Part shown: piece after piece, positions 2,114-42,768 of the stretch
How positions within the stretch are numbered: the first letter of the stretch is position 1
How the letters are laid out: every line of letters begins with the position of its first letter
Virus record (IMG/VR): IMGVR_UViG_3300045988_092515
Span: 1-47,370 of that record
Strand: one strand, 5' to 3'
Length of the DNA: 47,370 nt
Source: a virus
Notes under the pieces: generated by a model
Databases searched by the model: none
Seen by the model: the letters and a program-made list of their open reading frames with translations, nothing else
Told to the model about the DNA's origin: nothing
Translations under genes and position numbers: made by a program

Positions 2114-2847
2114 CTAGGCAAGAAACCGGCATCATCATGGATATCCTGACCACGGCCTACCCGACTTTCTACAACGGCAGAAACGCTCCTGATATGCGGA
2201 TGACAGTAAATCTTTGGGCGGAAATGTTCGCAGAGGACGATGTGAAGATCGTTGCGGCGGCTGTGAAAGCCTTGATTGCGACGGATGACAAGGGTTTCCC
2301 GCCACATATCGGGGCTGTGAAGGGCCGGATTCGGCAAATCAGCAACCCGGATGAAATGACCGAGCAGGAAGCGTGGGCGCTGATTTCCAAAGCGCTGCGT
2401 GATGGATATTATAACGCAGAAGCGGAATTCGCCAAACTGCCGCCGCTGGTGCAGGACGTTGTACACGATCCCAGGCAGTTGCGGGAATGGTCGATGATGG
2501 ACGAATCGACCGTGCAATCTGTCGTTGCATCCAATGTTCAGCGCAGTTTTCGGGCAAAGGCCCAGAGTAGGCGAGATTTTGAAGCTCTTCCCAAGGACGT
2601 GCAGGTGTTGGCAAAAACATTTGCCGCCGCTCTGCCACAGATGCCGGAAGAACCAAAACCGGCGGCATTGCCGCCCAGGGTGCGGACGGTGGAGGATATC
2701 AAGGCCGACATGGAGAAAACCAAAGCTATCCTGATGCAGCAGGCCGGGACGAAAAAGAAGCCTGCTGACTACACGCCACCTACGCCGGTAGACTGGGAAC
2801 GGCAGAGACAGGATGCGTTGCGTAGATTCCGGGAGGTGGCGCAGTGA
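2110..2847 (+). CDS. Replicative helicase loader/inhibitor (G39P-like)
   Basis: MTRQETGIIMDILTTAYPTFY...VNLWAEMFAEDDVKIVAAAVKALIATDDKGFPPHIGAV. ATGA overlap with the upstream gene. The ORF-track start at 2065 lacks an RBS. Confidence 0.6.
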   Translation: MTRQETGIIMDILTTAYPTFYNGRNAPDMRMTVNLWAEMFAEDDVKIVAAAVKALIATDDKGFPPHIGAVKGRIRQISNPDEMTEQEAWALISKALRDGYYNAEAEFAKLPPLVQDVVHDPRQLREWSMMDESTVQSVVASNVQRSFRAKAQSRRDFEALPKDVQVLAKTFAAALPQMPEEPKPAALPPRVRTVEDIKADMEKTKAILMQQAGTKKKPADYTPPTPVDWERQRQDALRRFREVAQ

Positions 2848-3242
2848 ACGAAGTTAGACGGGTGGCTTTTTTTACCATCCCCTACCCGGAAACCAAGCGG
2901 GGTATGACGGCGTGGAATAAACGGTTTAGCCTGAACGCCTACTATTCCGGGAAAAACTACCACCAGCGGAAACGTGATGCTGACGATATCCACCTGTTGA
3001 CTAGCATAGCTCTAAAACGGGCTAGAGTGAGGAAGGACCTGGTAAAAACGCCCGTGCAGGTGATTTTCTACTGGGACGATGGGCTTGATGTAGATAATCA
3101 CGCAGTCCTGGGGAAGATGATCGTCGATGCACTGAAAGGCTGGATTTTACCGAACGATAACCGCCGCTGGTACAGGAAGGTATCACACGAATTTTGGGAA
3201 CGCCAGGAAATCGGCGTGGAGGTCGTGGAGTGGGAGAAGTAA
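2844..3242 (+). CDS. RusA-like Holliday junction resolvase (putative)
   Basis: GLDVDNHAVLGKMIVDALKGWILPNDNRRW resembles the RusA D-x-DN...DAL...DD motif. GTG start overlaps the upstream stop. Confidence 0.45.
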   Translation: MNEVRRVAFFTIPYPETKRGMTAWNKRFSLNAYYSGKNYHQRKRDADDIHLLTSIALKRARVRKDLVKTPVQVIFYWDDGLDVDNHAVLGKMIVDALKGWILPNDNRRWYRKVSHEFWERQEIGVEVVEWEK

Positions 3243-3278
3243 CCATTTCCGTGACCCCGCGAAAAAGGAGGAAAACCA

Positions 3279-3851
3279 ATGATCAAAATCAAGAAAAACT
3301 GCACCTTGGAAACGACATGGAAGGAACTGAAGGACGATATTGAGTCCGCGTCTAACCCGCTGAATGTCGGCGATGAAATCGACATTATGCTGAAAACTGG
3401 CGAAAAAGTCACGCTGGTGTGTGAACGTGCAGGGCATAGGAGCGCAACGTTTTTTACGAAAAACCTGCTCGAAGATACTCACTGCATGAATGAGAACCGG
3501 AAAGCAAAAAACGGTGAGCAGTTGAGTACGATGGAGGCATATCTGGGCAAGCTCTTCCGCTTGTTGCCGTACGATTTGCAAGAAGTTGTAACTGAGCCGC
3601 TCCGATTGTTGCGAGAGAAGGAAGTCTTTGGAAAAAACAACTACGGGAATGAAGAATTGTGCGAAGTACTCCATCGTTACTCTGAGAAGGAAAACCGGGT
3701 TAAAACGCTGAACGGCGTCCCATTTCCATACTGGTTGGCATCCCCGCATGCGGAAGACCCCGCGTACTTTTGCACTGTGACCGACGGCGGCAACAGCGGC
3801 AACAACGACGCCAGCCACAGCCGCGGTGTTTGCTTCGGCTTCGACATTTAA
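3279..3851 (+). CDS. Hypothetical protein
   Basis: AGGAGG RBS and a 190-aa ORF. The C-terminal YWLASPHAED...SRGVCFGFDI was not assigned to a family. Confidence 0.5.
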   Translation: MIKIKKNCTLETTWKELKDDIESASNPLNVGDEIDIMLKTGEKVTLVCERAGHRSATFFTKNLLEDTHCMNENRKAKNGEQLSTMEAYLGKLFRLLPYDLQEVVTEPLRLLREKEVFGKNNYGNEELCEVLHRYSEKENRVKTLNGVPFPYWLASPHAEDPAYFCTVTDGGNSGNNDASHSRGVCFGFDI

Positions 3852-11238: not shown

Positions 11239-11326
11239 GGCGGGATACTCAAGTTTGGTCAAAGAGGCCGCATTGCTAATGCGGTATGGGCTACAGCCTG
11301 CGTAGGTTCAAATCCTACTCCTGCCG
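11239..11326 (+). tRNA. tRNA-Ser, anticodon GCU (class II, long variable arm)
   Basis: Acceptor GGCGGGA/TCCTGCC with one G-U pair. D arm CTC-AAGTTTGGTCAAA-GAG. Anticodon arm CCGCA-TTGCTAA-TGCGG, with GCT at 11275-11277. Variable arm GGGC-TACA-GCCT. T arm GTAGG-TTCAAAT-CCTAC. Discriminator G. Confidence 0.8.
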
Positions 11327-11680
11327 CCGGATGGGTTGTGGTGTAATCCCCTGAAACACCTGGCACCACGGAAAGGCGGGGATATATGCGGAAGGGCTAG
11401 TAGGGGCGTCACCGGATTGGTGAACTGGGTTCAAGGCCCAGCGACTGCACTGTATACAGTAGCCGATGAATGTACTAAGTCGGCGATTCCCCACGGTGGA
11501 ACACTGTTGCGTGTGTGTACAGCACCAACACCGCTGTGGGGCAATATGGCGGGTGGCGATAGCCTATATCCGGGTAGTTACCGGGGCCTGCTACCAGAAT
11601 AGCGGTTAGCATTTGCGGATGCTGGGGCGATGGAAACCCGCCCTGACAGCTCGGAAGAGACGGGCGTAGGAGGATAAAAT

Positions 11681-32935: not shown

Positions 32936-33127
32936 ATGAAACAACTGCTGAAACTGCTGGACGTGAAGAGCCTGGTGACGCTGGCTATGACCGGGGCGAT
33001 GATCGCCTTACTGTTTGCGCCGGTGAACGTGAATCAGGACGCTGTGACGCTGTTCTGCACGGCCTACGGGGCTATCATCACGTATTTCTTTACCAAAAAA
33101 ACGGAGGGAGGGACGAAAAATGAGTGA
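32936..33127 (+). CDS. Holin
   Basis: 63 aa, two TM segments (LVTLAMTGAMIALLFAPV and LFCTAYGAIITYFF), a charged C-terminus, directly upstream of the endolysin gene. Confidence 0.65.
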   Translation: MKQLLKLLDVKSLVTLAMTGAMIALLFAPVNVNQDAVTLFCTAYGAIITYFFTKKTEGGTKNE

Positions 33128-33902
33128 ATCCAGCTTAGCTACCTACGTCCACTACTCCCCCAACTGCACCAAGCCCCGACAGGGGACTATCCAGGGCGTG
33201 GCAATCCACTGCACCGCCGGAGGGCGGAACTTGCCCGCCCGCAGCTTTGCGGACATGAACCGCTTTGCCGTGAAGCAAAAAAACGGGGCATCCTGCCACT
33301 ATGTGGTAGGCGGTGACGGCTCCATTGCCCAGGTTTGCCGGGAGGAAAACCGGGCCTGGTGTACCAGCAACCCGATCGACCACCAGATCATCACCATCGA
33401 GGTTGCCAGCGACGCCGACGGGGTGTGCAAATGCAATGCGGCGGCACTCAACAGCCTGATTGAGCTGCTGGTGGATATCTGCCAGCGGAATAACATTCCC
33501 CGCCTGCTGTGGCGGGGGGATAAGGCGCTGATGGGGCAGTGGGATGAGCAGAACATGGTGGTGCATCGCTGGACGGCGAACAAAGCCTGTCCGGGGGACT
33601 ACCTGTATAATAAGCACGCGGCGATTGCCCAGGCCGTCAATGAGCGGCTTGGGGCGGAAATGGAGGATGAGGATATGGATATCAACAAGTTGTTGGCAGA
33701 AATGACGGGGGCGCAGGCCTACACACTGTATACCAAGGCCATGACGTTTGCTGCCGCCGTGGCGGAACCGGAGTGGAGCCGGAAGCAGGGCCATTGGGAA
33801 AAGGCCACCCTCAAGGGCATCGTGGACGGGCAGGAGCCGGAGCGGCCCGTCAAGCGGGATGAGCTGGCCGCTGTGCTGGGCCGTCTGGGGGTGCTGGATT
33901 GA
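33120..33902 (+). CDS. N-acetylmuramoyl-L-alanine amidase endolysin (Amidase_2/PGRP type)
   Basis: GVAIHCTAGG...SCHYVVGGDGSIAQVCREENRAWCTSN...ITIEVAS...HRWTANKACPGDYLY, plus a C-terminal putative wall-binding region. Confidence 0.9.
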   Translation: MSESSLATYVHYSPNCTKPRQGTIQGVAIHCTAGGRNLPARSFADMNRFAVKQKNGASCHYVVGGDGSIAQVCREENRAWCTSNPIDHQIITIEVASDADGVCKCNAAALNSLIELLVDICQRNNIPRLLWRGDKALMGQWDEQNMVVHRWTANKACPGDYLYNKHAAIAQAVNERLGAEMEDEDMDINKLLAEMTGAQAYTLYTKAMTFAAAVAEPEWSRKQGHWEKATLKGIVDGQEPERPVKRDELAAVLGRLGVLD

Positions 33903-34142: not shown

Positions 34143-34925
34143 TTATTTTGGTTCATCTTGATTGTCAATGCGCCTTTGAATCAATCCCCGTACATACTCA
34201 CTGACTGAGATGCCCTGCGCTTTCGCGGTGTTTCTAACATCACGCAACATCTCCGGTGGAACTGTGATAGTGAGCGACTGCATGTGTTTGTTGGACGGTT
34301 TTCGTCCCCTTCCTTTCTTCTCTGGGTGTTTTATTTCATAATTTTCCCTGGATCTTTGTTTATTCAGCATCTTCGAACATTCGTCGGAACACGTTTTTGC
34401 CCGGCGGCTGCGATTTTCTGCTATCTCATTCCCGCAAACAACGCAAATTCTTGGCGGGTCTTGGATTTCGCCTCTTTTGATTAGCTTCATTTTTCGGGCG
34501 GATTCCATTACCTGCACGGAACGGCGCTCCCTGGAACAGCGCGGGCAGAAACGCGCCTTGGATTCCCCTGGGATACTCTCCCCGCACATCTCGCATTTTT
34601 TGAGTGCTTTCACTGTGGATGTTTTGGGGGCTGGTTTATTCATCTTGTAATCTGCGTATTTTGTTGCCATATAACGCCGATCTTTTTCTCTCACGCACTC
34701 ATCCGAACAGGTTGTTGCGTTCGGATGCCTATCCGGTGGGATAGGTCTTCCACAAATCACGCAAAAACGCTGTGGCTCCATCAATTCTATTTCTCTGCGC
34801 CTTTTTATGGCGTCTTCGACGTGGTCAAAGCTCCCAAAATATTTTTTTCGGCGCATTACGATCCACTTTTGGCCCTTCTCGTTCCAGGTGACACCCTTCA
34901 CGCCGGACTTCTTCTTTTCCTCCAT
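34143..34925 (-). CDS. DNA-binding protein with an AP2 domain, three zinc ribbons and a C-terminal ribbon-helix-helix
   Basis: GVKGVTWNEKGQKWIVMRRKKYFGSFDHVEDAIKRR. Three repeats of C-x2-CG...TCSDEC/FCPRC type. C-terminal LTITVPPEMLRDVRNTAKAQGISVSEYVRGLIQRRI. AGGAGG RBS. Confidence 0.65.
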   Translation of the reverse strand: MEEKKKSGVKGVTWNEKGQKWIVMRRKKYFGSFDHVEDAIKRRREIELMEPQRFCVICGRPIPPDRHPNATTCSDECVREKDRRYMATKYADYKMNKPAPKTSTVKALKKCEMCGESIPGESKARFCPRCSRERRSVQVMESARKMKLIKRGEIQDPPRICVVCGNEIAENRSRRAKTCSDECSKMLNKQRSRENYEIKHPEKKGRGRKPSNKHMQSLTITVPPEMLRDVRNTAKAQGISVSEYVRGLIQRRIDNQDEPK

Positions 34926-36838: not shown

Positions 36839-36868
36839 CCCGTCCCATTTTGGGGGCGGGCTTTTTTG
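36839..36868 (+). terminator. Plus-strand intrinsic terminator with no annotated upstream plus-strand gene
   Basis: CCCGTCCC-atttt(g)-GGGGCGGG followed by CTTTTTTGTT. Confidence 0.55.
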
Positions 36869-36876
36869 TTGGGCAG

Positions 36877-36919
36877 AAATTGAGCATAAATTGAGCAGGA
36901 ATTGGGCATCATTTGAACA
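36877..36919 (+). repeat. Four direct repeats spaced exactly 11 bp apart, upstream of the cassette promoter
   Basis: AAATTGAGCA (36877), AAATTGAGCA (36888), GAATTGGGCA (36899), CATTTGAACA (36910). Confidence 0.6.
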
Positions 36920-36970: not shown

Positions 36971-37426
36971 ATGGCTGCTTACAGTGTGCCGAACTACAAC
37001 GTCAACTATCAAATGCCAAACCAGATGCAAAACGTGCAGGGCTATCAGCAGAATCAGGTATACCAGCAGGGGCAGAACTACCAGCCCTCTATAATCCAGC
37101 AGAGCAACAGCGGATATATCTGCCGCCCAGTAACAGGCCGGGAGGAAGCGGTTGCCATGCAGGTTGATTTTCTGGGGTCTGGTACGTTGATGCCTGATTT
37201 TCCCCACGGAATCATATATTTTAAGCGATTCAACCCAAACACTGGGGCGGCGGATTTTGCTGAATTCCGTTTAGCGCCGCCACAACCGGAACCAAAACCG
37301 GCGCAAGGCGTAACGATGGACGATTTCAACGCCCTAGCAGATAGGGTTAGAAAACTAGAGAAAATGGAAGGTGGGATAAAAAATGGTGCAGATGAACCCT
37401 ATGATGTTTCTGATGCAGGCCGCTAG
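36971..37426 (+). CDS. Hypothetical protein with a Q/N/Y-rich N-terminus (cassette gene 1)
   Basis: MAAYSVPNYNVNYQMPNQMQNVQGYQQNQVYQQGQNYQPSIIQQSNSG, then ICRPVTGREEAVAMQVDFLGSGTLMPDFPHGIIYFKRFNPNTGAADFAEFRL. Confidence 0.55.
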   Translation: MAAYSVPNYNVNYQMPNQMQNVQGYQQNQVYQQGQNYQPSIIQQSNSGYICRPVTGREEAVAMQVDFLGSGTLMPDFPHGIIYFKRFNPNTGAADFAEFRLAPPQPEPKPAQGVTMDDFNALADRVRKLEKMEGGIKNGADEPYDVSDAGR

Positions 37427-37619
37427 AAGCGGGAATCCAATGGGTATGCTCCAACAGTTGGCGGGCCAGAATCCACAGATTTCTCAGGCCATGCGGATGA
37501 TGCAGGGCAAATCAACCAAGCAGTTGCAGCAGATGGCCCAGAACATGGCGAACGAGCGAGGCGTTAGTCTCAACGATGTGGCCCGGCAGTTAGGAATCAC
37601 GATTCCTAGCAACCGGTAA
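37383..37619 (+). CDS. Small Met/Gln-rich protein (cassette gene 2)
   Basis: 12 Met in 78 aa (MVQMNPMMFLMQAARSGNPMGMLQQLAGQNPQISQAMRMMQGK...). GAAGGTGGG RBS. It overlaps gene 1 by 44 nt. Confidence 0.45.
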   Translation: MVQMNPMMFLMQAARSGNPMGMLQQLAGQNPQISQAMRMMQGKSTKQLQQMAQNMANERGVSLNDVARQLGITIPSNR

Positions 37620-37690
37620 CAAAATATAACCCTTTCAGTTGGCGAATCTTGACAAAAATCGTCAAATCTAACTGAAAGGTGGTTTGTCGA

Positions 37691-38533
37691 ATGGCAGACG
37701 AAATGATGACTGGTTATCTGGCCGGACAGGCTGATAACAACAACTGCAACGGCGGCGGTATGTGGGGCGGTGATGGTTCCTGGATTTTCGCATTCCTGAT
37801 TATCGCCCTGATCTTCGGCGGCAACGGCTTCGGCTGGGGCAACAACGGCGCGAATGGCGGCGCTTTACAGGGGGCTATCACCCGCGCAGACCTGTGCGAA
37901 TCCTTTAACTTCAACGGCCTTGATAACGCCGTTCGTGGTGTGCAGAGCGGCCTCTGCGATGGATTCTATGCTATGAATACCGGGATGCTGAACGGTTTCA
38001 ATGGCATGCAGCAGGTGGTTTCTAATGGCTTCCACGGCGTTGATAATGCTATCTGCGCTATGGGTTACCAGAATGCCCAGCTTATCAACGGCGTAACCCA
38101 GAACATGAACACCGGTTTTACCGGCGTGACGGCTGGCCTCACGGCTCTGGGCAATCAGATGCAGTCCTGCTGCTGTGATACTCAGCGGCAGGTGGAGCGC
38201 GGCTTCTGCGATACCAATTACAACGCTGCAACCAACGCCCGTGATATCATCCAGTCCACCCACAACGACACCGACCGGATCATTGCGCGAATCGACCAGA
38301 TGGAAACCGCACGGCAGGCCGAGAAGATCGCGGCGCTTCAGGCCGAAAACCAGGGCCTGAAATTTGCCGCATCCCAGGCCGCACAGAACACTTACCTGGT
38401 GGCGTCCCAGGCGGACCAGACGGCGAAGATCATCAACGCTATCAACCCGGCACCGATTCCGGCTTACCAGGTTCCAAATCCCTACACTGGTGTAGGGGTC
38501 TCCTGTGGCTGCAATAGCGGCTGCGGTTGCTGA
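37691..38533 (+). CDS. Membrane-anchored Gly/Asn-rich, 12-Cys protein (cassette gene 3)
   Basis: GGGMWGGDGSWIFAFLIIALIFGGNGFGWGNNG (TM), NGF/NG-type repeats, SCCCDT, a coiled coil (IARIDQMETARQAEKIAALQAENQ) and the tail VSCGCNSGCGC. Confidence 0.6.
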   Translation: MADEMMTGYLAGQADNNNCNGGGMWGGDGSWIFAFLIIALIFGGNGFGWGNNGANGGALQGAITRADLCESFNFNGLDNAVRGVQSGLCDGFYAMNTGMLNGFNGMQQVVSNGFHGVDNAICAMGYQNAQLINGVTQNMNTGFTGVTAGLTALGNQMQSCCCDTQRQVERGFCDTNYNAATNARDIIQSTHNDTDRIIARIDQMETARQAEKIAALQAENQGLKFAASQAAQNTYLVASQADQTAKIINAINPAPIPAYQVPNPYTGVGVSCGCNSGCGC

Positions 38534-38566
38534 TTCAACACATTCCGGCTATGCCGTGATACTAAA

Positions 38567-38596
38567 GGCGGCAGGTTTTTCCTGCCGCCTATTTTT
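38567..38596 (+). terminator. Strong intrinsic terminator inside the cassette
   Basis: GGCGGCAGG-ttttt-CCTGCCGCC followed by TATTTTT. Confidence 0.8.
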
Positions 38597-38608
38597 GAGA
38601 GGTGACGC

Positions 38609-38788
38609 ATGGAAAAAGAAATTTTTGATAGAGCAGTTGACATGCTACAGGACGGAAAACGGCAGGAGGCTGTTATCATGCTGCGAGACAACGGATTCCC
38701 TTGTACCTCCGAGGACGGCGGCTTATCCGTTTCACTTATGCTTCTGATGATGGCGTTTTCTGATTGTTTCGATAGGGAAGGGAAATAA
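38609..38788 (+). CDS. Small ORF (59 aa, cassette gene 4), absent from the ORF track
   Basis: GAGAGGTG RBS. Translation is MEKEIFDRAVDMLQDGKRQEAVIMLRDNGFPCTSEDGGLSVSLMLLMMAFSDCFDREGK. Confidence 0.4.
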   Translation: MEKEIFDRAVDMLQDGKRQEAVIMLRDNGFPCTSEDGGLSVSLMLLMMAFSDCFDREGK

Positions 38789-38789
38789 A

Positions 38790-39014
38790 ATGTTAGATTT
38801 CAACGAATTCCAGGAAGCGGTTTGGCGTAGCAAGATGGCTAACGCGGCAAGTAAGCCTTGTGAAGGCTTCGGGTTGGGGCGTTCTTCTGCACCGGATTAC
38901 CAGGATAACAGCAGCGATTTCTTCATGTTCGCGGTAATTATGATAATTTTCGGCGGTGCATGGATGCGTGAAATTTCCGAAAAACTCGATGAACTGAAAG
39001 GGGACAAAAAATAA
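38790..39014 (+). CDS. Small membrane protein (cassette gene 5)
   Basis: TM segment FFMFAVIMIIFGGAWM. It starts 1 nt after the upstream stop. Confidence 0.5.
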   Translation: MLDFNEFQEAVWRSKMANAASKPCEGFGLGRSSAPDYQDNSSDFFMFAVIMIIFGGAWMREISEKLDELKGDKK

Positions 39015-39424
39015 TGGCCTGTAAGACGATTTGCCGCCTGTGCGACAAGTTGGTGATTTCCCAGGCGGTGAACTATTCCGCTGCATCCGGGCTTATCATC
39101 AACATTCCGGCAGGTAGCTACACCAATGGGCAAAAAGCCTGCTTGGTGATCGCACAGAACATCCCGGCGGCGGCTACTATCAATGCACCGGTATTTATCA
39201 CTATCGGCACCGGCACCCAACTGTACCCGCTGAATCGTGCAGACTGCACCCAGGCAACGGCCTGCAACCTGCGAACCAGAACACGGTACAGCACCAGAAT
39301 TTCGACAACGGCCACGGGTGGCGCTTTCAAACTGCTGGGCCGTCCATGTTGTGCACCTAACAACGCCCTGGCTTCCATCGACGGAACGGCCCCGACAACT
39401 AACGAAGGAGGCGGCGCAGGATGA
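39014..39424 (+). CDS. Cys-rich protein (9 Cys, cassette gene 6)
   Basis: MACKTICRLCDKLV...KACLVIAQNIP...ADCTQATACNL...RPCCAPNN. TAATG overlap. Confidence 0.55.
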   Translation: MACKTICRLCDKLVISQAVNYSAASGLIINIPAGSYTNGQKACLVIAQNIPAAATINAPVFITIGTGTQLYPLNRADCTQATACNLRTRTRYSTRISTTATGGAFKLLGRPCCAPNNALASIDGTAPTTNEGGGAG

Positions 39425-40143
39425 GTAAATTTAGCAGAATGATGCTCCTAAACTCTGGTAGCAAAAAGGCTTCCGATGATCGCGAGGAAAACGAACACCG
39501 CGACCAGCAGGAACGTCACCATGACTACAACGTAGACGATCGTTTCCGTGATACCCGTGGCCGTGAACACTACGACAATGGCCGCTACGCACCCCAGGAC
39601 ACTATGCCCTATTACTACCCTTATGGAGGCTACGACGCTAGGGGAGGGCGTGAGCCTGGCTATACGTTGGCTAGAAACGGCGGATACGCGGAACCTGCTA
39701 AAACAACCCGCCCCATTGGGTTCGAGCGCGGTGACGGTCCTTATATGGGCGGCGCAGATGCTACCGTTCCCCGGTACAACGAAATGGAACGTATGCCCGG
39801 AAACCGTGCCATGACCGGCGGTGCAGAATCCAACGTTTCGCCGCGTTTCGACATGCAGATGGCCCAAGAGTGGACGCGCCGGATGCAGAATGAGGATGGC
39901 ACCACCGGCCCACACTGGACGATTGACCAAACCAACAAGGTGATGGAACAGCGCGGGGTAAATGAGGACCCTGTTAAGTTCTGGGCGGCGATGAATATGA
40001 TCTATTCCGATTTCGTCAATGTAGCCAAAAAGCTTGGCATTTCTAACGTAGATTTCTACACTGAAATGACCCGTGCTTTCCTGGATGATAAGGACGTTTC
40101 GGGGGATAAACTGGCAAAATATTATGAATATGTTGTGAAATAA
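39421..40143 (+). CDS. Protein with an Arg/Asp/His/Tyr-rich N-half and a globular C-half (cassette gene 7)
   Basis: DDREENEHRDQQERHHDYNVDDRFRDTRGREHYDNGRYAPQDTMPYYYPYGGYDARGG..., then MAQEWTRRMQNEDGTTGPHWTIDQTNKV...FWAAMNMIYSDF. ATGA overlap. Confidence 0.55.
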   Translation: MSKFSRMMLLNSGSKKASDDREENEHRDQQERHHDYNVDDRFRDTRGREHYDNGRYAPQDTMPYYYPYGGYDARGGREPGYTLARNGGYAEPAKTTRPIGFERGDGPYMGGADATVPRYNEMERMPGNRAMTGGAESNVSPRFDMQMAQEWTRRMQNEDGTTGPHWTIDQTNKVMEQRGVNEDPVKFWAAMNMIYSDFVNVAKKLGISNVDFYTEMTRAFLDDKDVSGDKLAKYYEYVVK

Positions 40144-40200: not shown

Positions 40201-40218
40201 TTGACTAAAATTTGACTA
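40201..40218. repeat. Arm-type direct repeat copy 1 (TTGACTAAAATTTGACTA)
   Basis: An 18-bp perfect repeat of 40391..40408. Each copy holds two TTGACTA half-sites 11 bp apart. Confidence 0.7.
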
Positions 40219-40280
40219 AAACCTGGGTGTATTTCGGGGCATCTCAAGGGCCTTCAAAGTACCACCAAAAACAGCAAAAA

Positions 40281-40327
40281 ACCGTTGAGAATCAAAGGAA
40301 ATCCTTGAAACTCAACGGTTTTCTGTT
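40281..40327 (+). terminator. Hairpin plus T tract downstream of the cassette
   Basis: ACCGTTGAG-21 nt-CTCAACGGT followed by TTTCTGTTT and preceded by an A tract. Confidence 0.5.
40284..40298. repeat. Core-flanking direct repeat copy 1 (GTTGAGAATCAAAGG)
   Basis: 14 of 15 positions match 40364..40378. AAATCAAAG also occurs at 40177. Confidence 0.6.
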
Positions 40328-40351
40328 TGGCGGAGAAGGAGGGATTTGAAC
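40328..40351 (-). mobile_element. attP core candidate: the 3'-terminal 24 nt of a class II tRNA (Ser-type), minus strand
   Basis: The reverse complement reads GTTCAAATCCCTCCTTCTCCGCCA, i.e. T loop, T stem 3' strand, acceptor 3' strand CTTCTCC, discriminator G and CCA. Similarity to a tRNA stops inside the T loop. Confidence 0.6.
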
Positions 40352-40363
40352 TATCACTTTTTC

Positions 40364-40390: not shown

Positions 40391-40408
40391 TTGACTAAAA
40401 TTTGACTA
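40391..40408. repeat. Arm-type direct repeat copy 2 (TTGACTAAAATTTGACTA)
   Basis: Perfect copy that abuts the integrase stop codon. Confidence 0.7.
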
Positions 40409-41455
40409 TCATTCCTTTTCTGGGGTTTCAAACTCATAATTTGCCCCTAGTAGTTTTTTGTTCACCTTCCTGGAATGTACCTCTCGGATGTGTGTATAAA
40501 TATCCTTGGTAGTGGATTCTTGGGCGTGTCCCAATAATTTTTGAGCGTCTTTCGTTCTGATGTCTTCTTCGTACAACAGGGTAGCGTATGCGTGGCGGAT
40601 AGGATGTGGAGTGCAGGTTACGCCGGATTCGCGCTTATATTTTGCCCAGCACCCTTCAAAAACCCCTTCTGTCATCAGCTTTCCGTATTTGTCCGGGAAA
40701 ATCAATCCCTTGCTCTTCTGGGTGATGATTTTATCTTCCAGGGCTTTCAACAGGGGTAAGGGGCGGATTCCGTTCTCGGTCTTTGGGGCTTTTATTTTTT
40801 TTACACCGAGAGCAGACACGCGGGATTTAGTAACGTGAATCAATTTTTCTTTGAAATCCACGTCCTCCCAGCGCAGGGCGAGTAGTTCACCACGCCGCAA
40901 TCCTGTGTAGAGCGTCCAATATGCGAACATCCCGAATGTGCATTCTGTCGAATGGATCACTCGCTTTATATCATCGTCGCTAGCTATCTGCCGTTTCTTT
41001 TTTGGTAGGCCTGCCGGTATCTCTATCTCCCGACAAGCGTTGATCCTTGTGTATCCGTGCGCCACGGCGTACTTGCAAATCATGTTGATAACAGAACGCT
41101 GTGTGCTAGCTGTTTTCCGCGCTGGATGCTGTTCGGCAACATAGCGCATTAAAAATGCGTTGATGTCCACGGGTTCAATTTCGGTTATCTGCCTATCGCC
41201 TAGAGCCTCGATAGCTCGGCGGATGGGGGCATAGTACGATTTCTTTGTGTTGATTTCCAGCCCTTCAACGTAGTTCTCCTGCCACTCTTCGGCGATAGCG
41301 CCAAATGTCCGGGCTTGTTCCTGTTCCTGTTCGTACTGGTTAATCTTTTCCAGCACTTCCCGTTTTGTCCTGCCATAGAAAAATTTGGTTTTCTTTTGGC
41401 CGTTTACAACAATGGGCAAGTTTTCTTGCCATCTTCCGTCTACGCGTTTGTACAT
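40409..41455 (-). CDS. int: Tyrosine recombinase (phage integrase)
   Basis: N-terminal SAM-like region. Catalytic region RRGELLALRWEDVD...PHPIRHAYATLLYEEDIRTKDAQKLLGHAQESTTKDIYTHI. Confidence 0.9.
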   Translation of the reverse strand: MYKRVDGRWQENLPIVVNGQKKTKFFYGRTKREVLEKINQYEQEQEQARTFGAIAEEWQENYVEGLEINTKKSYYAPIRRAIEALGDRQITEIEPVDINAFLMRYVAEQHPARKTASTQRSVINMICKYAVAHGYTRINACREIEIPAGLPKKKRQIASDDDIKRVIHSTECTFGMFAYWTLYTGLRRGELLALRWEDVDFKEKLIHVTKSRVSALGVKKIKAPKTENGIRPLPLLKALEDKIITQKSKGLIFPDKYGKLMTEGVFEGCWAKYKRESGVTCTPHPIRHAYATLLYEEDIRTKDAQKLLGHAQESTTKDIYTHIREVHSRKVNKKLLGANYEFETPEKE

Positions 41456-41696
41456 TGAATTTTCCTCCTGTGTGTGCTACACTAGCAGGGACTAGCAGCG
41501 TAGCAGCGTTGTCTAGTCGGGTTTATAGGGGGAGCTGCCTGCACTCGAATTTTGGGCGGCTCCTCTCTTTTTGTTCAATATGTCCATGCTCCACCCTTGC
41601 ATTGGCACAGCGTCCCTGCTATACTGATACCGATGCAACGCGGAGAAGTTAAAAAGTTGCAGTTTTCTCCTAGCCGTGGGGGCTAGGTGCAAGAAA

Positions 41697-41736
41697 GCCG
41701 TCTGGGAATTCAGGGTCCCGGACGGCTTTTCTTTTT
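41697..41736. terminator. Terminator hairpin between the lipoprotein gene and int
   Basis: GCCGTCTGGGA-attcaggg-TCCCGGACGGC followed by TTTTCTTTTT, with an A-rich tract on the other side. Confidence 0.6.
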
Positions 41737-42277
41737 AGCTTAATTGTGCAGGATCAAATTCCTGTGTTGCTTTGTCAGCGCCGCCAAGGAAAACGCTCAA
41801 TTCAAATTCTACCTTAGATGTTGTGTTGGGTAATTCGTAGGCAAGCTGAAAATCTTGGGTGGTTCCAGGGCGAATATCCTTCCATTGTGCATCCCCGTCA
41901 TAAACACCATCCCGATCTTCGACAGCAGCGTTTTCTAACTGTACGCCGTCCTGGAACGCCTGCCCCATCAAAGCGGCCAGCGCGGATGTGGTTTCTTCGC
42001 TGTTGTTCGTCCAGGTGCAATCAACGATGATAGCATCGTTTCCTTCTATGTCTTTCGCGAGGGAAGCGCCCTTGATGGCGAAATCATAGCTATCAGTGGA
42101 AATGCTTGCAGTATCTTTGGGCGTTTCTTCGTCCTTGGCAGTGTCAGCGGCCTGGGTGGTATTCTCTGCGTTGTTTTCGTTGGTATCAGTTGTCGTACCA
42201 GCATCACCACCGCCACAGGCGCACAATGTCAGGGCCAGGGCAGAGCCGAACAGAATAGCGGCTATACGTTTTTTCAT
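41735..42277 (-). CDS. Lipoprotein (DUF4352/DUF5067-like Ig-fold domain)
   Basis: Signal peptide plus lipobox MKKRIAAILFGSALALTLCACGG. C-terminal ...DAIIVDCTWTNNSEETTSA... Confidence 0.7.
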   Translation of the reverse strand: MKKRIAAILFGSALALTLCACGGGDAGTTTDTNENNAENTTQAADTAKDEETPKDTASISTDSYDFAIKGASLAKDIEGNDAIIVDCTWTNNSEETTSALAALMGQAFQDGVQLENAAVEDRDGVYDGDAQWKDIRPGTTQDFQLAYELPNTTSKVEFELSVFLGGADKATQEFDPAQLS

Positions 42278-42720
42278 TGGGCACCATCCACTTTCTCTAG
42301 GGTGGCGGTAACGGTGCTACCGTCCACAGTCACGTCATAAGTGATCTTGCCGTCCTGGTAGGTGAATGTCTTGGTTTCGTCCGGGGATGCCATGAGCGCG
42401 GTGCTAGTCTGCTCTGTGTCGTTCTGGGAATCCCAGGTGTAAGGTTCATCTGCCGTGGTGGGTGCGGTGTAGGTACCAGCCCAGTACAGCATAGAATCAC
42501 CATCTACCACCCAATCGACCGTGATGGAATCGTCGGTGATGGTGGCTTTCTGGCTCACCTCATCGGACAGTTTGGCTTCCCATTCGCCCACCAAACTAGG
42601 TGGGGTTGCCTGCTTGGAATCTGCTGCCGGTGCATCCGTCGTGCTGCCACTGCTCCCACAGGCGCACAAGGACAGCATCAACAGGGTACCGGTCAGGCCT
42701 GCTAAGACTCTTTTATTCAT
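42274..42720 (-). CDS. Lipoprotein (second, tandem)
   Basis: GGAGGT RBS before MNKRVLAGLTGTLLMLSLCACGSSG. It has the same LxLCACG lipobox as its neighbour. Confidence 0.7.
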   Translation of the reverse strand: MNKRVLAGLTGTLLMLSLCACGSSGSTTDAPAADSKQATPPSLVGEWEAKLSDEVSQKATITDDSITVDWVVDGDSMLYWAGTYTAPTTADEPYTWDSQNDTEQTSTALMASPDETKTFTYQDGKITYDVTVDGSTVTATLEKVDGAQ

Positions 42721-42768
42721 TTTTACCTCCAAATATATTTATTGCCGCCCTCCGGCGGCATTGGGAAC

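Follow-up and report, generated by a model that had tools for sequence, protein, structure and literature searches.

The lambda Rz-type inner-membrane spanin subunit, the stalk-and-knob fibres (phage collagen-like and tail fibres, and Bacillus BclA with its C1q/TNF-like C-terminal domain), and the lipid-surface-binding proteins with 11-residue repeats (apolipoproteins, perilipins, and the alpha-synuclein type) are the described systems that come closest to a gene module that we analysed in a viral DNA stretch of 47,370 nucleotides (nt), IMG/VR record IMGVR_UViG_3300045988_092515, positions 1 to 47,370 (the window). The module lies in seven co-directional open reading frames (ORFs), g1 to g7, on the plus strand at 36971-40143. 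The true unit is a core of five of them, g1, g2, g3, g6, and g7, joined in the window by a variable g4-g5 insert. We tentatively read this core as a horizontally mobile module encoding a membrane-anchored complex that would be built late in infection and would probably act at lysis or egress. Only function-less families match its members, namely DUF7841 and PHROGs 16490, 20016, 21718, 22984, and 28802, and the linkage of these families in one module is not recorded in them. Literature searches with DUF7841, the PHROG numbers, the carrier phage C3_41T2LP, and descriptive terms returned nothing relevant. A preliminary description, made from the sequence alone, had proposed an undescribed accessory system here, and this claim is strengthened.

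A five-gene core with a variable insert

All seven ORFs of the preliminary description are present, and the junctions TAAAATG, TAATG, and ATGA reported between g4 and g7 are real. The seven do not form one unit, as a survey of co-occurrence across loci made clear. The first two loci inspected encode g1, g2, g3, g6, and g7 in this order and lack g4 and g5. The same core order is strict across about 45 diverse loci (40 genome-bin loci and several annotated phages), in which the g6 position is taken by g6 or by an unrelated protein of ~145 amino acids (aa) and the g7 position by DUF7841 or other R/D/Y/G-rich helical proteins. Overall, the core recurs in ~130 loci. The order is also kept in 75 of the 80 closest IMG/VR loci. 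Of these 80, 60 carry just the five core genes, 13 add both g4 and g5 and all belong to the window's own species, one adds g5 alone, and the remainder are interrupted by contig ends.

The inserted genes are small. The lineage-specific g4 (38609..38788, 59 aa) was seen solely in the window's own phage species; a relative at 98% identity has a g5 homologue and no g4. The fast-evolving g5 (38790..39014, 74 aa) encodes a small membrane protein with one transmembrane stretch (FFMFAVIMIIFGG) and a short helical tail, and analogous small transmembrane genes stand between g3 and g6 in two relatives (L053 and L012). We counted codon differences among close relatives as synonymous/non-synonymous. The core genes are under purifying selection, with 170/75 for g1, 169/23 for g2, 154/10 for g3, 279/55 for g6, and 379/186 for g7. 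The corresponding counts are 143/85 for g4 and 134/167 for g5, which is barely constrained. Among genomes with g3 97-100% identical, the nucleotide identity of g4-g5 is 82-89%, and the insert is a hypervariable spot within a conserved module.

The signature protein g3

The signature gene g3 (37691..38533) belongs to phrog_16490 (E 3.8e-51 against PHROG 16490) and, read from ATG 37691, encodes 280 aa with 12 Cys. Starting at the alternative GTG 37679, the product would have 284 aa; ATG 37691 is the more likely start because a proper ribosome binding site (RBS, GAAAGGTGG) precedes it and homologues start with MADE. The protein opens with an acidic N-tail without K or R, followed by a single transmembrane helix that is flanked by Gly, Trp, and Asn and contains the Gly-rich stretch IFAFLIIALIFGG. 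Amphipathic helices with 11-residue periodicity come next and lead to an invariant CCC; a helix of ~115 residues follows, and a Pro-rich linker connects it to the Cys/Gly-rich C-terminal tail (CGCNSGCGC). GF-x-G repeats spaced ~11 residues apart run through the membrane-proximal part.

This architecture is a property of the family. A Trp-flanked transmembrane-type segment is kept in 226 of the 267 g3 family members tested, with an onset at about aa 31 and an N-tail charge of 0.38 (K+R) versus 3.5 (D+E). CCC occurs in 215 of these 226 and at least two Cys within the last 15 aa in 217, and the mean number of Cys after the transmembrane stretch is 11.9. An AlphaFold2 (AF2) model of g3 predicts the transmembrane helix and further helices at 76-113 and 136-251, with a low mean confidence (predicted local distance difference test, pLDDT, 52). 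The hydrophobic periodicity of the helices is significant at 3.6-3.67 residues (0/5000 and 8/5000 shuffles) and not at the 3.5 residues of a canonical heptad coiled coil, which is rejected; the g3 helices are thus amphipathic with an 11-residue (11/3) periodicity.

Fusions were sought as a clue to function. The best 150 g3-family proteins listed range from 128 to 340 aa, and no added domain occurs in any of them. A candidate fusion, an N-terminal g2 domain in the g3 of crAss-type phages, was rejected at 1.5-3.6 bits, the range of shuffled controls. A g3 profile compared with the sequences in PDB retrieved generic coiled coils only, and a g3 homologue from an archaeal virus is annotated with PHROG 16490.

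g6 and the alternative protein at its position

The g6 product (39014..39424, 136 aa) begins with MACKTICRLC and contains eight Cys, not the nine first counted; those at positions 3, 7, 10, 43, 78, and 113 are invariant, and the N-terminal motif reads C3-x3-C7-x2-C10. Its AF2 model is an eight-strand beta-sandwich (pLDDT 72). In BFVD, a database of predicted structures, the model's matches other than its own homologues are to collagen-like, tail fibre, tail-collar fibre, and receptor-binding proteins (E 2e-4 to 2e-2) and cover parts of these proteins; in its predicted fold, g6 is similar to portions of phage fibres and of collagen-like proteins. A radical SAM identity, considered from the CX3CX2C spacing, was rejected: g6 has no Pfam match, is only 136 aa long, is predicted to be all-beta, and has the three-cysteine motif alone in common with these enzymes.

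In many sister modules, g6 is swapped for the ~145-aa protein, which belongs to phrog_20016. Two members of this alternative family match BclA_C weakly, at 15.9-17.5 bits versus a cut-off of 38. Homology between g6 and the alternative family is not demonstrable by hhalign (probability 0.5%).

g1, g2, g7, and frequent partners

The three other core products are rich in a few residues, and apart from the Cys count of g6 the compositions given in the preliminary description hold: Q/N/Y in g1, 12 Met in g2, 12 Cys and the CGCNSGCGC tail in g3, the membrane character of g5, and R/D/H/Y in g7. The g1 product (36971..37426, 151 aa with 16 Gln and 12 Asn) has a variable, disordered, Q/N/Y/P-rich N-terminus, of which the first 45 aa are Q/N/Y-rich in the window, then a conserved domain of ~65 aa and a helical charged tail. 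It overlaps by 44 nt with g2 (37383..37619, 78 aa with 12 Met and 13 Gln), a small helical protein with NP-x-Q/M repeats. The g7 product (39421..40143, 240 aa with 22 Arg, 22 Asp, and 17 Tyr) has a disordered N-half rich in R/D/Y/G/H that carries RFRDxRGREHYDNGRYAP; the conserved motifs RFRDRRGREHYDNGRYAP and PIGF precede a C-terminal DUF7841 domain (aa 130-236, 106.4 bits versus a cut-off of 25.2, E 1.3e-30). PF25223 is present in all 120 of the 120 g7 homologues listed. Both g1 and g7 are half disordered.

Two additional proteins are frequent module members: a Cys-His-Asp protein of ~130 aa (phrog_3754) and an HExxH protein of ~105 aa with weak similarity to Peptidase_M78/SprT. Signal peptides and lipoboxes are absent from all g1-g7 products, which makes unlikely the cell-surface layer that the preliminary description had envisaged.

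Scans of the seven products against Pfam, NCBIfam, PHROGs, and PADLOC retrieved no family of known function, and g1 had no match to any known family in profile searches. The window's own g1, g2, g6, and g7 match no PHROG at a meaningful score; homologues from sister loci and g7-like partners fall into PHROGs 20016, 21718, 22984, and 28802, with 21718 matched by the g1 homologues and 22984 by the g2 homologues. Profiles of g1, g2, g3, g6, g7, and the ~145-aa alternative family have no meaningful match among PDB sequences. The check for known families that the preliminary description had proposed, including Pfam and PDB profile searches and a fold search with the AF2 model of g6, thus returned no confident match of known function.

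Regulatory signals around the cassette

The cassette was described as having its own promoter region and as being bracketed by terminators. The bracketing hairpins exist: a terminator-like hairpin with a T-run (36839..36860, plus strand; 8 bp, 7 of them GC) divides the cassette from the minus-strand genes, and an inverted repeat (40275..40325) whose arms measure 21 nt, also with a T-run, forms a terminator-like cassette end. No sigma-70 consensus promoter was found upstream of g1; in its place, ~50 bp upstream of g1, are five TTGRGCA motifs (36869..36919, plus strand) with an exact 11-bp spacing, a candidate binding array for a dedicated regulator. The array is kept in two relatives (L053 and L054), and in a third (L048) a similar phased array precedes the module directly 3' of a small sigma70_r4-like gene, a regulator for which the window has no homologue.

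Two further hairpins lie inside the cassette on the plus strand. In a stem-loop at 37631..37680 (dG -26.5 kcal/mol, z -4.4), the 3' arm includes the Shine-Dalgarno sequence of g3, so that the RBS would be occluded. Equivalent stem-loops of the same geometry occur in L048 and L035, where both arms are altered and yet still pair, which suggests that g3 is under translational control by an RBS-occluding stem. Between g3 and g4, a hairpin with a T-run (38566..38590; 10 bp, 8 of them GC) is likely an attenuator that separates g1-g3 from the downstream genes, and analogous hairpins stand 3' of g3 in L001 and L012. An Rfam scan of the cassette region gave zero families above threshold.

Distribution and genomic neighbourhood

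We found at least 6,957 g3 relatives in a database clustered at 90%, and the family comprises 2,575 clusters at 50% identity. A scan of IMG/VR confirmed at least 574 sites that encode a g3 relative. Prophage-like contigs that carry the module were binned with Clostridia, Bacilli, and others, and most hosts are Clostridia or Bacilli. For example, a prophage of the cultured human-gut isolate Vescimonas fastidiosa MM35 carries it (L134, NZ_AP023416.1 251813-254547), located 3' of holin and amidase genes and 5' of host lactate genes, with all its genes annotated as hypothetical. It is also present in viruses assigned to Methanomassiliicoccales, in the Bacteroides uniformis phage C3_41T2LP, in the crAss-like phages cr116_1 and cr125_1, where it adjoins holin and endolysin genes, and in Butyrivibrio phage Ceridwen, which has no integrase, was observed in the lytic cycle only, and is considered virulent by its authors (PMC7372960). 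The Bacteroides and crAss versions retain the g3 architecture in detail, and their g3 neighbours resemble divergent forms of g6, the disordered R/D/Y segment, DUF7841, and a small HExxH peptidase.

Among 50,697 GenBank phage records, all g3 matches are from gut, rumen, or faecal sources, and cultured phages of Bacillus, Staphylococcus, Streptococcus, and Lactococcus have none. At the nucleotide level, the structural region of the window has no relative among GenBank phages, and the cassette has two short pieces only.

Lysis genes are the most common upstream neighbours. A Pfam scan of 129 upstream ORFs identified 11 holins, as well as amidase, XhlA, and peptidoglycan-binding proteins, and seven small genes of the sigma70_r4/GerE helix-turn-helix type. 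The 104 downstream ORFs include six tyrosine integrases, three serine recombinases, and host genes. These tallies indicate that the module is the last block before the integrase and attachment site (int/att) in temperate phages of Firmicutes.

Some carriers have further peculiarities. The g3 homologue of cr125_1 (L047 5658-6557) contains in-frame stop codons under genetic code table 11, indicating stop-codon recoding, and several loci labelled "uncultured Bacilli" (L006-L008) have ORFs broken up in the same manner. In a 46.7-kb contig binned as Alloprevotella (CAVEPP010000001.1), the same g3 gene is found near both ends (L018/L019), suggesting that a circular phage genome was assembled with redundant ends.

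Setting of the module in the window

The window looks like the genome of a temperate phage in which the cassette sits between the lysis genes and the phage attachment site (attP), and the position given in the preliminary description stands. The lysis gene is an Amidase_2 endolysin (33120-33902), separated from the cassette by four minus-strand genes. The attP core (40329..40352, minus strand) duplicates 24 nt of a tRNA 3' end (GTTCAAATCCCTCCTTCTCCGCCA) and lies between the two copies of a perfect 18-bp direct repeat (40201-40218 and 40391-40408), as is typical of attP. The tyrosine integrase gene int (40409..41455, minus strand) lies outside the module, and lipoprotein and repressor-type genes follow past it. 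The phage also encodes a tRNA-Ser(GCT) at 11239-11328, the 3' end of which is unlike the tRNA-like attP core.

Just past the integrase are two tandem paralogous DUF5067/DUF4352 lipoprotein genes (41735-42732, minus strand), a site that is the usual slot for superinfection-exclusion lipoproteins in Gram-positive prophages. Between int and these genes, a hairpin with a 15-bp stem (41662-41741) matches Rfam ctRNA_pGA1 at 34.5 bits (gathering score 45, E 5e-4) and is probably merely a bidirectional terminator. Within the block next to the lysis genes, a 260-aa protein (34143-34925, minus strand) has matches to a DUF2116 treble-clef, a DksA/TraR zinc finger, and CopG/RHH. The equivalent block of the close relative L053 has an AcrVA2-like gene (2632-3633), and the minus-strand genes ahead of the cassette look like a slot for conflict genes.

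Possible function of the module

The conservation of the core, its presence in non-lysogenic phages, and its spread over monoderm, diderm, and archaeal hosts argue for a complex on the cytoplasmic membrane that is part of the lytic programme. The lack of export signals, the anchor and repeats of g3, the predicted translational control, the second small transmembrane gene, and the lysis neighbours point in the same direction. According to this reading, which we favour tentatively, the core would work in the infected cell, and g3 would insert into the membrane so that the short acidic N-tail faces outward and the helical body stays in the cytoplasm; we infer this orientation because the N-tail has neither K nor R. 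The membrane-proximal 11-mer helices might rest on the cytoplasmic side of the membrane or reshape it, and the long helix would form a stalk of roughly 17 nm. The knob-like predicted fold of g6, together with the Cys-rich ends of g3 and g6, suggests a stalk-and-knob in which the tip of the g3 stalk would be joined to the N-terminus of g6 via metal or thiols. The Met/Gln-rich g2 could handle the hydrophobic segment of g3, and the half-disordered g1 and g7 could serve as adaptors. The stem that hides the g3 RBS would throttle g3 synthesis, as expected of a membrane-active protein, and g4 and g5 would be a variable add-on. Since holin and endolysin genes are the most frequent ones upstream of the module, its task most likely lies at the cytoplasmic membrane, at or near the time of lysis or egress.

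Several points weigh against this reading. None of the products has a characterised homologue. The charge bias behind the topology is weak, as both flanks of the transmembrane helix are almost uncharged, and the g3 model is the low-confidence one. The g3-g6 junction and the chaperone role of g2 are purely inferred; the matches of the g2 family to STI1 DP, XPC-binding, and ubiquilin domains are sub-threshold and come from single members, and the g6 model has no match among solved structures in the PDB (best E 0.28). Proximity to lysis genes may be due to nothing more than the end of a late operon. Other settings exist: the Dulem virus 35 module has the portal/minor capsid genes on one side and the major capsid gene on the other, and that of C3_41T2LP is surrounded by recombination genes. 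Lastly, an envelope-specific lysis does not sit easily with a module that acts alike in monoderm, diderm, and archaeal viruses' hosts. The fullest version of the membrane-complex reading is rather unlikely: it would make the core a hitherto unrecognised machine that bacterial and archaeal viruses of the gut have in common, in which a membrane-anchored, Cys- or metal-linked stalk-and-knob serves a lytic step beyond the holin/endolysin/spanin scheme. This step might take place at the cytoplasmic membrane, the one envelope layer common to all hosts, and consist in remodelling it or in releasing progeny there.

The main rival, an accessory fibre on the virion, is doubtful. Here, g3 would be a shaft anchored in the particle by its hydrophobic N-terminus, g6 or the BclA_C-like protein its distal knob, and g1, g2, and g7 assembly factors or adaptors; binding to a common gut target, e.g., mucin glycans, in place of a host-specific receptor would explain the spread across unrelated hosts. 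The partial matches of the g6 model to tail-fibre, collagen-like, receptor-binding, and tail-collar proteins fit this idea, as do the weak BclA_C similarity at the g6 position, the labels "outer capsid protein/viral fiber" and "spike protein" that other annotators gave to g3 homologues, and the occurrence in three host phyla, all in gut or rumen samples. Gene order provides further support from the head genes of Dulem virus 35 and from four loci in which the module directly follows large tail proteins (L004, L010, L014, and L024), whereas the usual site is after the lysis genes and not inside the tail genes, and the recombination genes around the C3_41T2LP module do not fit a fibre either. A Trp-flanked transmembrane-type segment in most g3 members tested and a second small transmembrane protein (g5) also count against a fibre, and an RBS-occluding stem suits a membrane protein better. 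Moreover, the g3 helices lack the heptad periodicity, and no solved fibre structure matches g6.

A phage-borne system for exclusion or abortive infection is improbable. It would use g3 as a membrane effector that is restrained by its partners and freed upon infection by a competing phage, and the place by int/att in temperate phages is the moron slot, where many prophage defence systems are carried. Such a role would agree with a membrane protein under predicted tight translational control, with the frequent peptidase-like partners (the Cys-His-Asp and HExxH proteins), with the hypervariable g4-g5 island, and with the anti-CRISPR-like and other conflict genes that adjoin the module in a relative. 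Yet the five conserved proteins evolve slowly, unlike fast-turning defence genes, and nuclease, NADase, and other usual effector domains are absent from them. The sole match in PADLOC 2.0 is to the coiled-coil-type helical tail of ZorA (14.9 bits, E 0.0016). In addition, the module is co-oriented with the late genes, and at every locus inspected its surroundings are phage genes or a prophage integration border, never a bacterial defence island.

The reading first proposed, lysogenic conversion, is undermined by the occurrence of the module in Ceridwen, judged virulent by its authors, in crAss-like phages, in a head-gene cluster, and near recombination genes in a phage of Bacteroides. That the cassette would serve lysogenic conversion by building or altering a layer of the cell surface, spore coat, or an exosporium-like kind is highly improbable, since the confirmed Cys/Tyr/Gly/Gln-rich compositions, the moron position, the weak BclA_C similarity of the alternative at the g6 position, and one related prophage that adjoins cotJA/cotJB in a presumed spore-former are set against a lytic-only carrier and crAss-like phages, non-sporulating hosts (Bacteroides, Butyrivibrio, and methanogenic archaea such as Methanomassiliicoccales), products without signal peptide or lipobox, the absence of collagen-like repeats, and no Pfam or NCBIfam match of any of the seven products to BclA_C, YjcZ, Cot, Exs, or Cde families.

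The wide distribution and the conservation of the module make it likely that it serves a general step in the biology of anaerobic-gut phages, one that spans the boundary between bacterial and archaeal viruses. Its identification would provide an annotation for thousands of dark-matter genes in one stroke. Cultured carriers exist in Ceridwen, C3_41T2LP, and the MM35 prophage, and the module is therefore directly testable.

Comparison with known systems

No known kind of system fits the five-gene module, which departs from each of those compared here in a defining feature. The nearest in layout is the lambda Rz-type spanin subunit, with which g3 has in common an N-terminal transmembrane anchor, a long helical body, conserved cysteines, a tight size constraint, and a gene near holin and endolysin genes. 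Unlike a spanin, the module has no outer-membrane lipoprotein partner (there is no lipobox in g1-g7), most of its hosts have no outer membrane, and four further conserved partners accompany g3. The charge pattern of g3 suggests a cytoplasmic and not a periplasmic body, and profile searches revealed no similarity to spanin families.

The module resembles stalk-and-knob fibres in parts. The predicted beta-sandwich of g6 matches parts of such fibres, the alternative at the g6 position is weakly similar to the C-terminal domain of BclA, and the long helical g3 could be a shaft; all of these fibre and BclA matches are below curated thresholds or to predicted structures only. In the module, shaft and knob would be separate polypeptides, the shaft has a membrane-type anchor, collagen repeats are absent, and, unlike BclA, the genes are independent of spore-forming hosts.

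The lipid-surface-binding proteins differ from g3 in that there is no sequence homology between them and in that g3 is Cys-rich and anchored by a transmembrane helix. What g3 shares with them is the highly significant 11/3 amphipathic pattern of its membrane-proximal helices.

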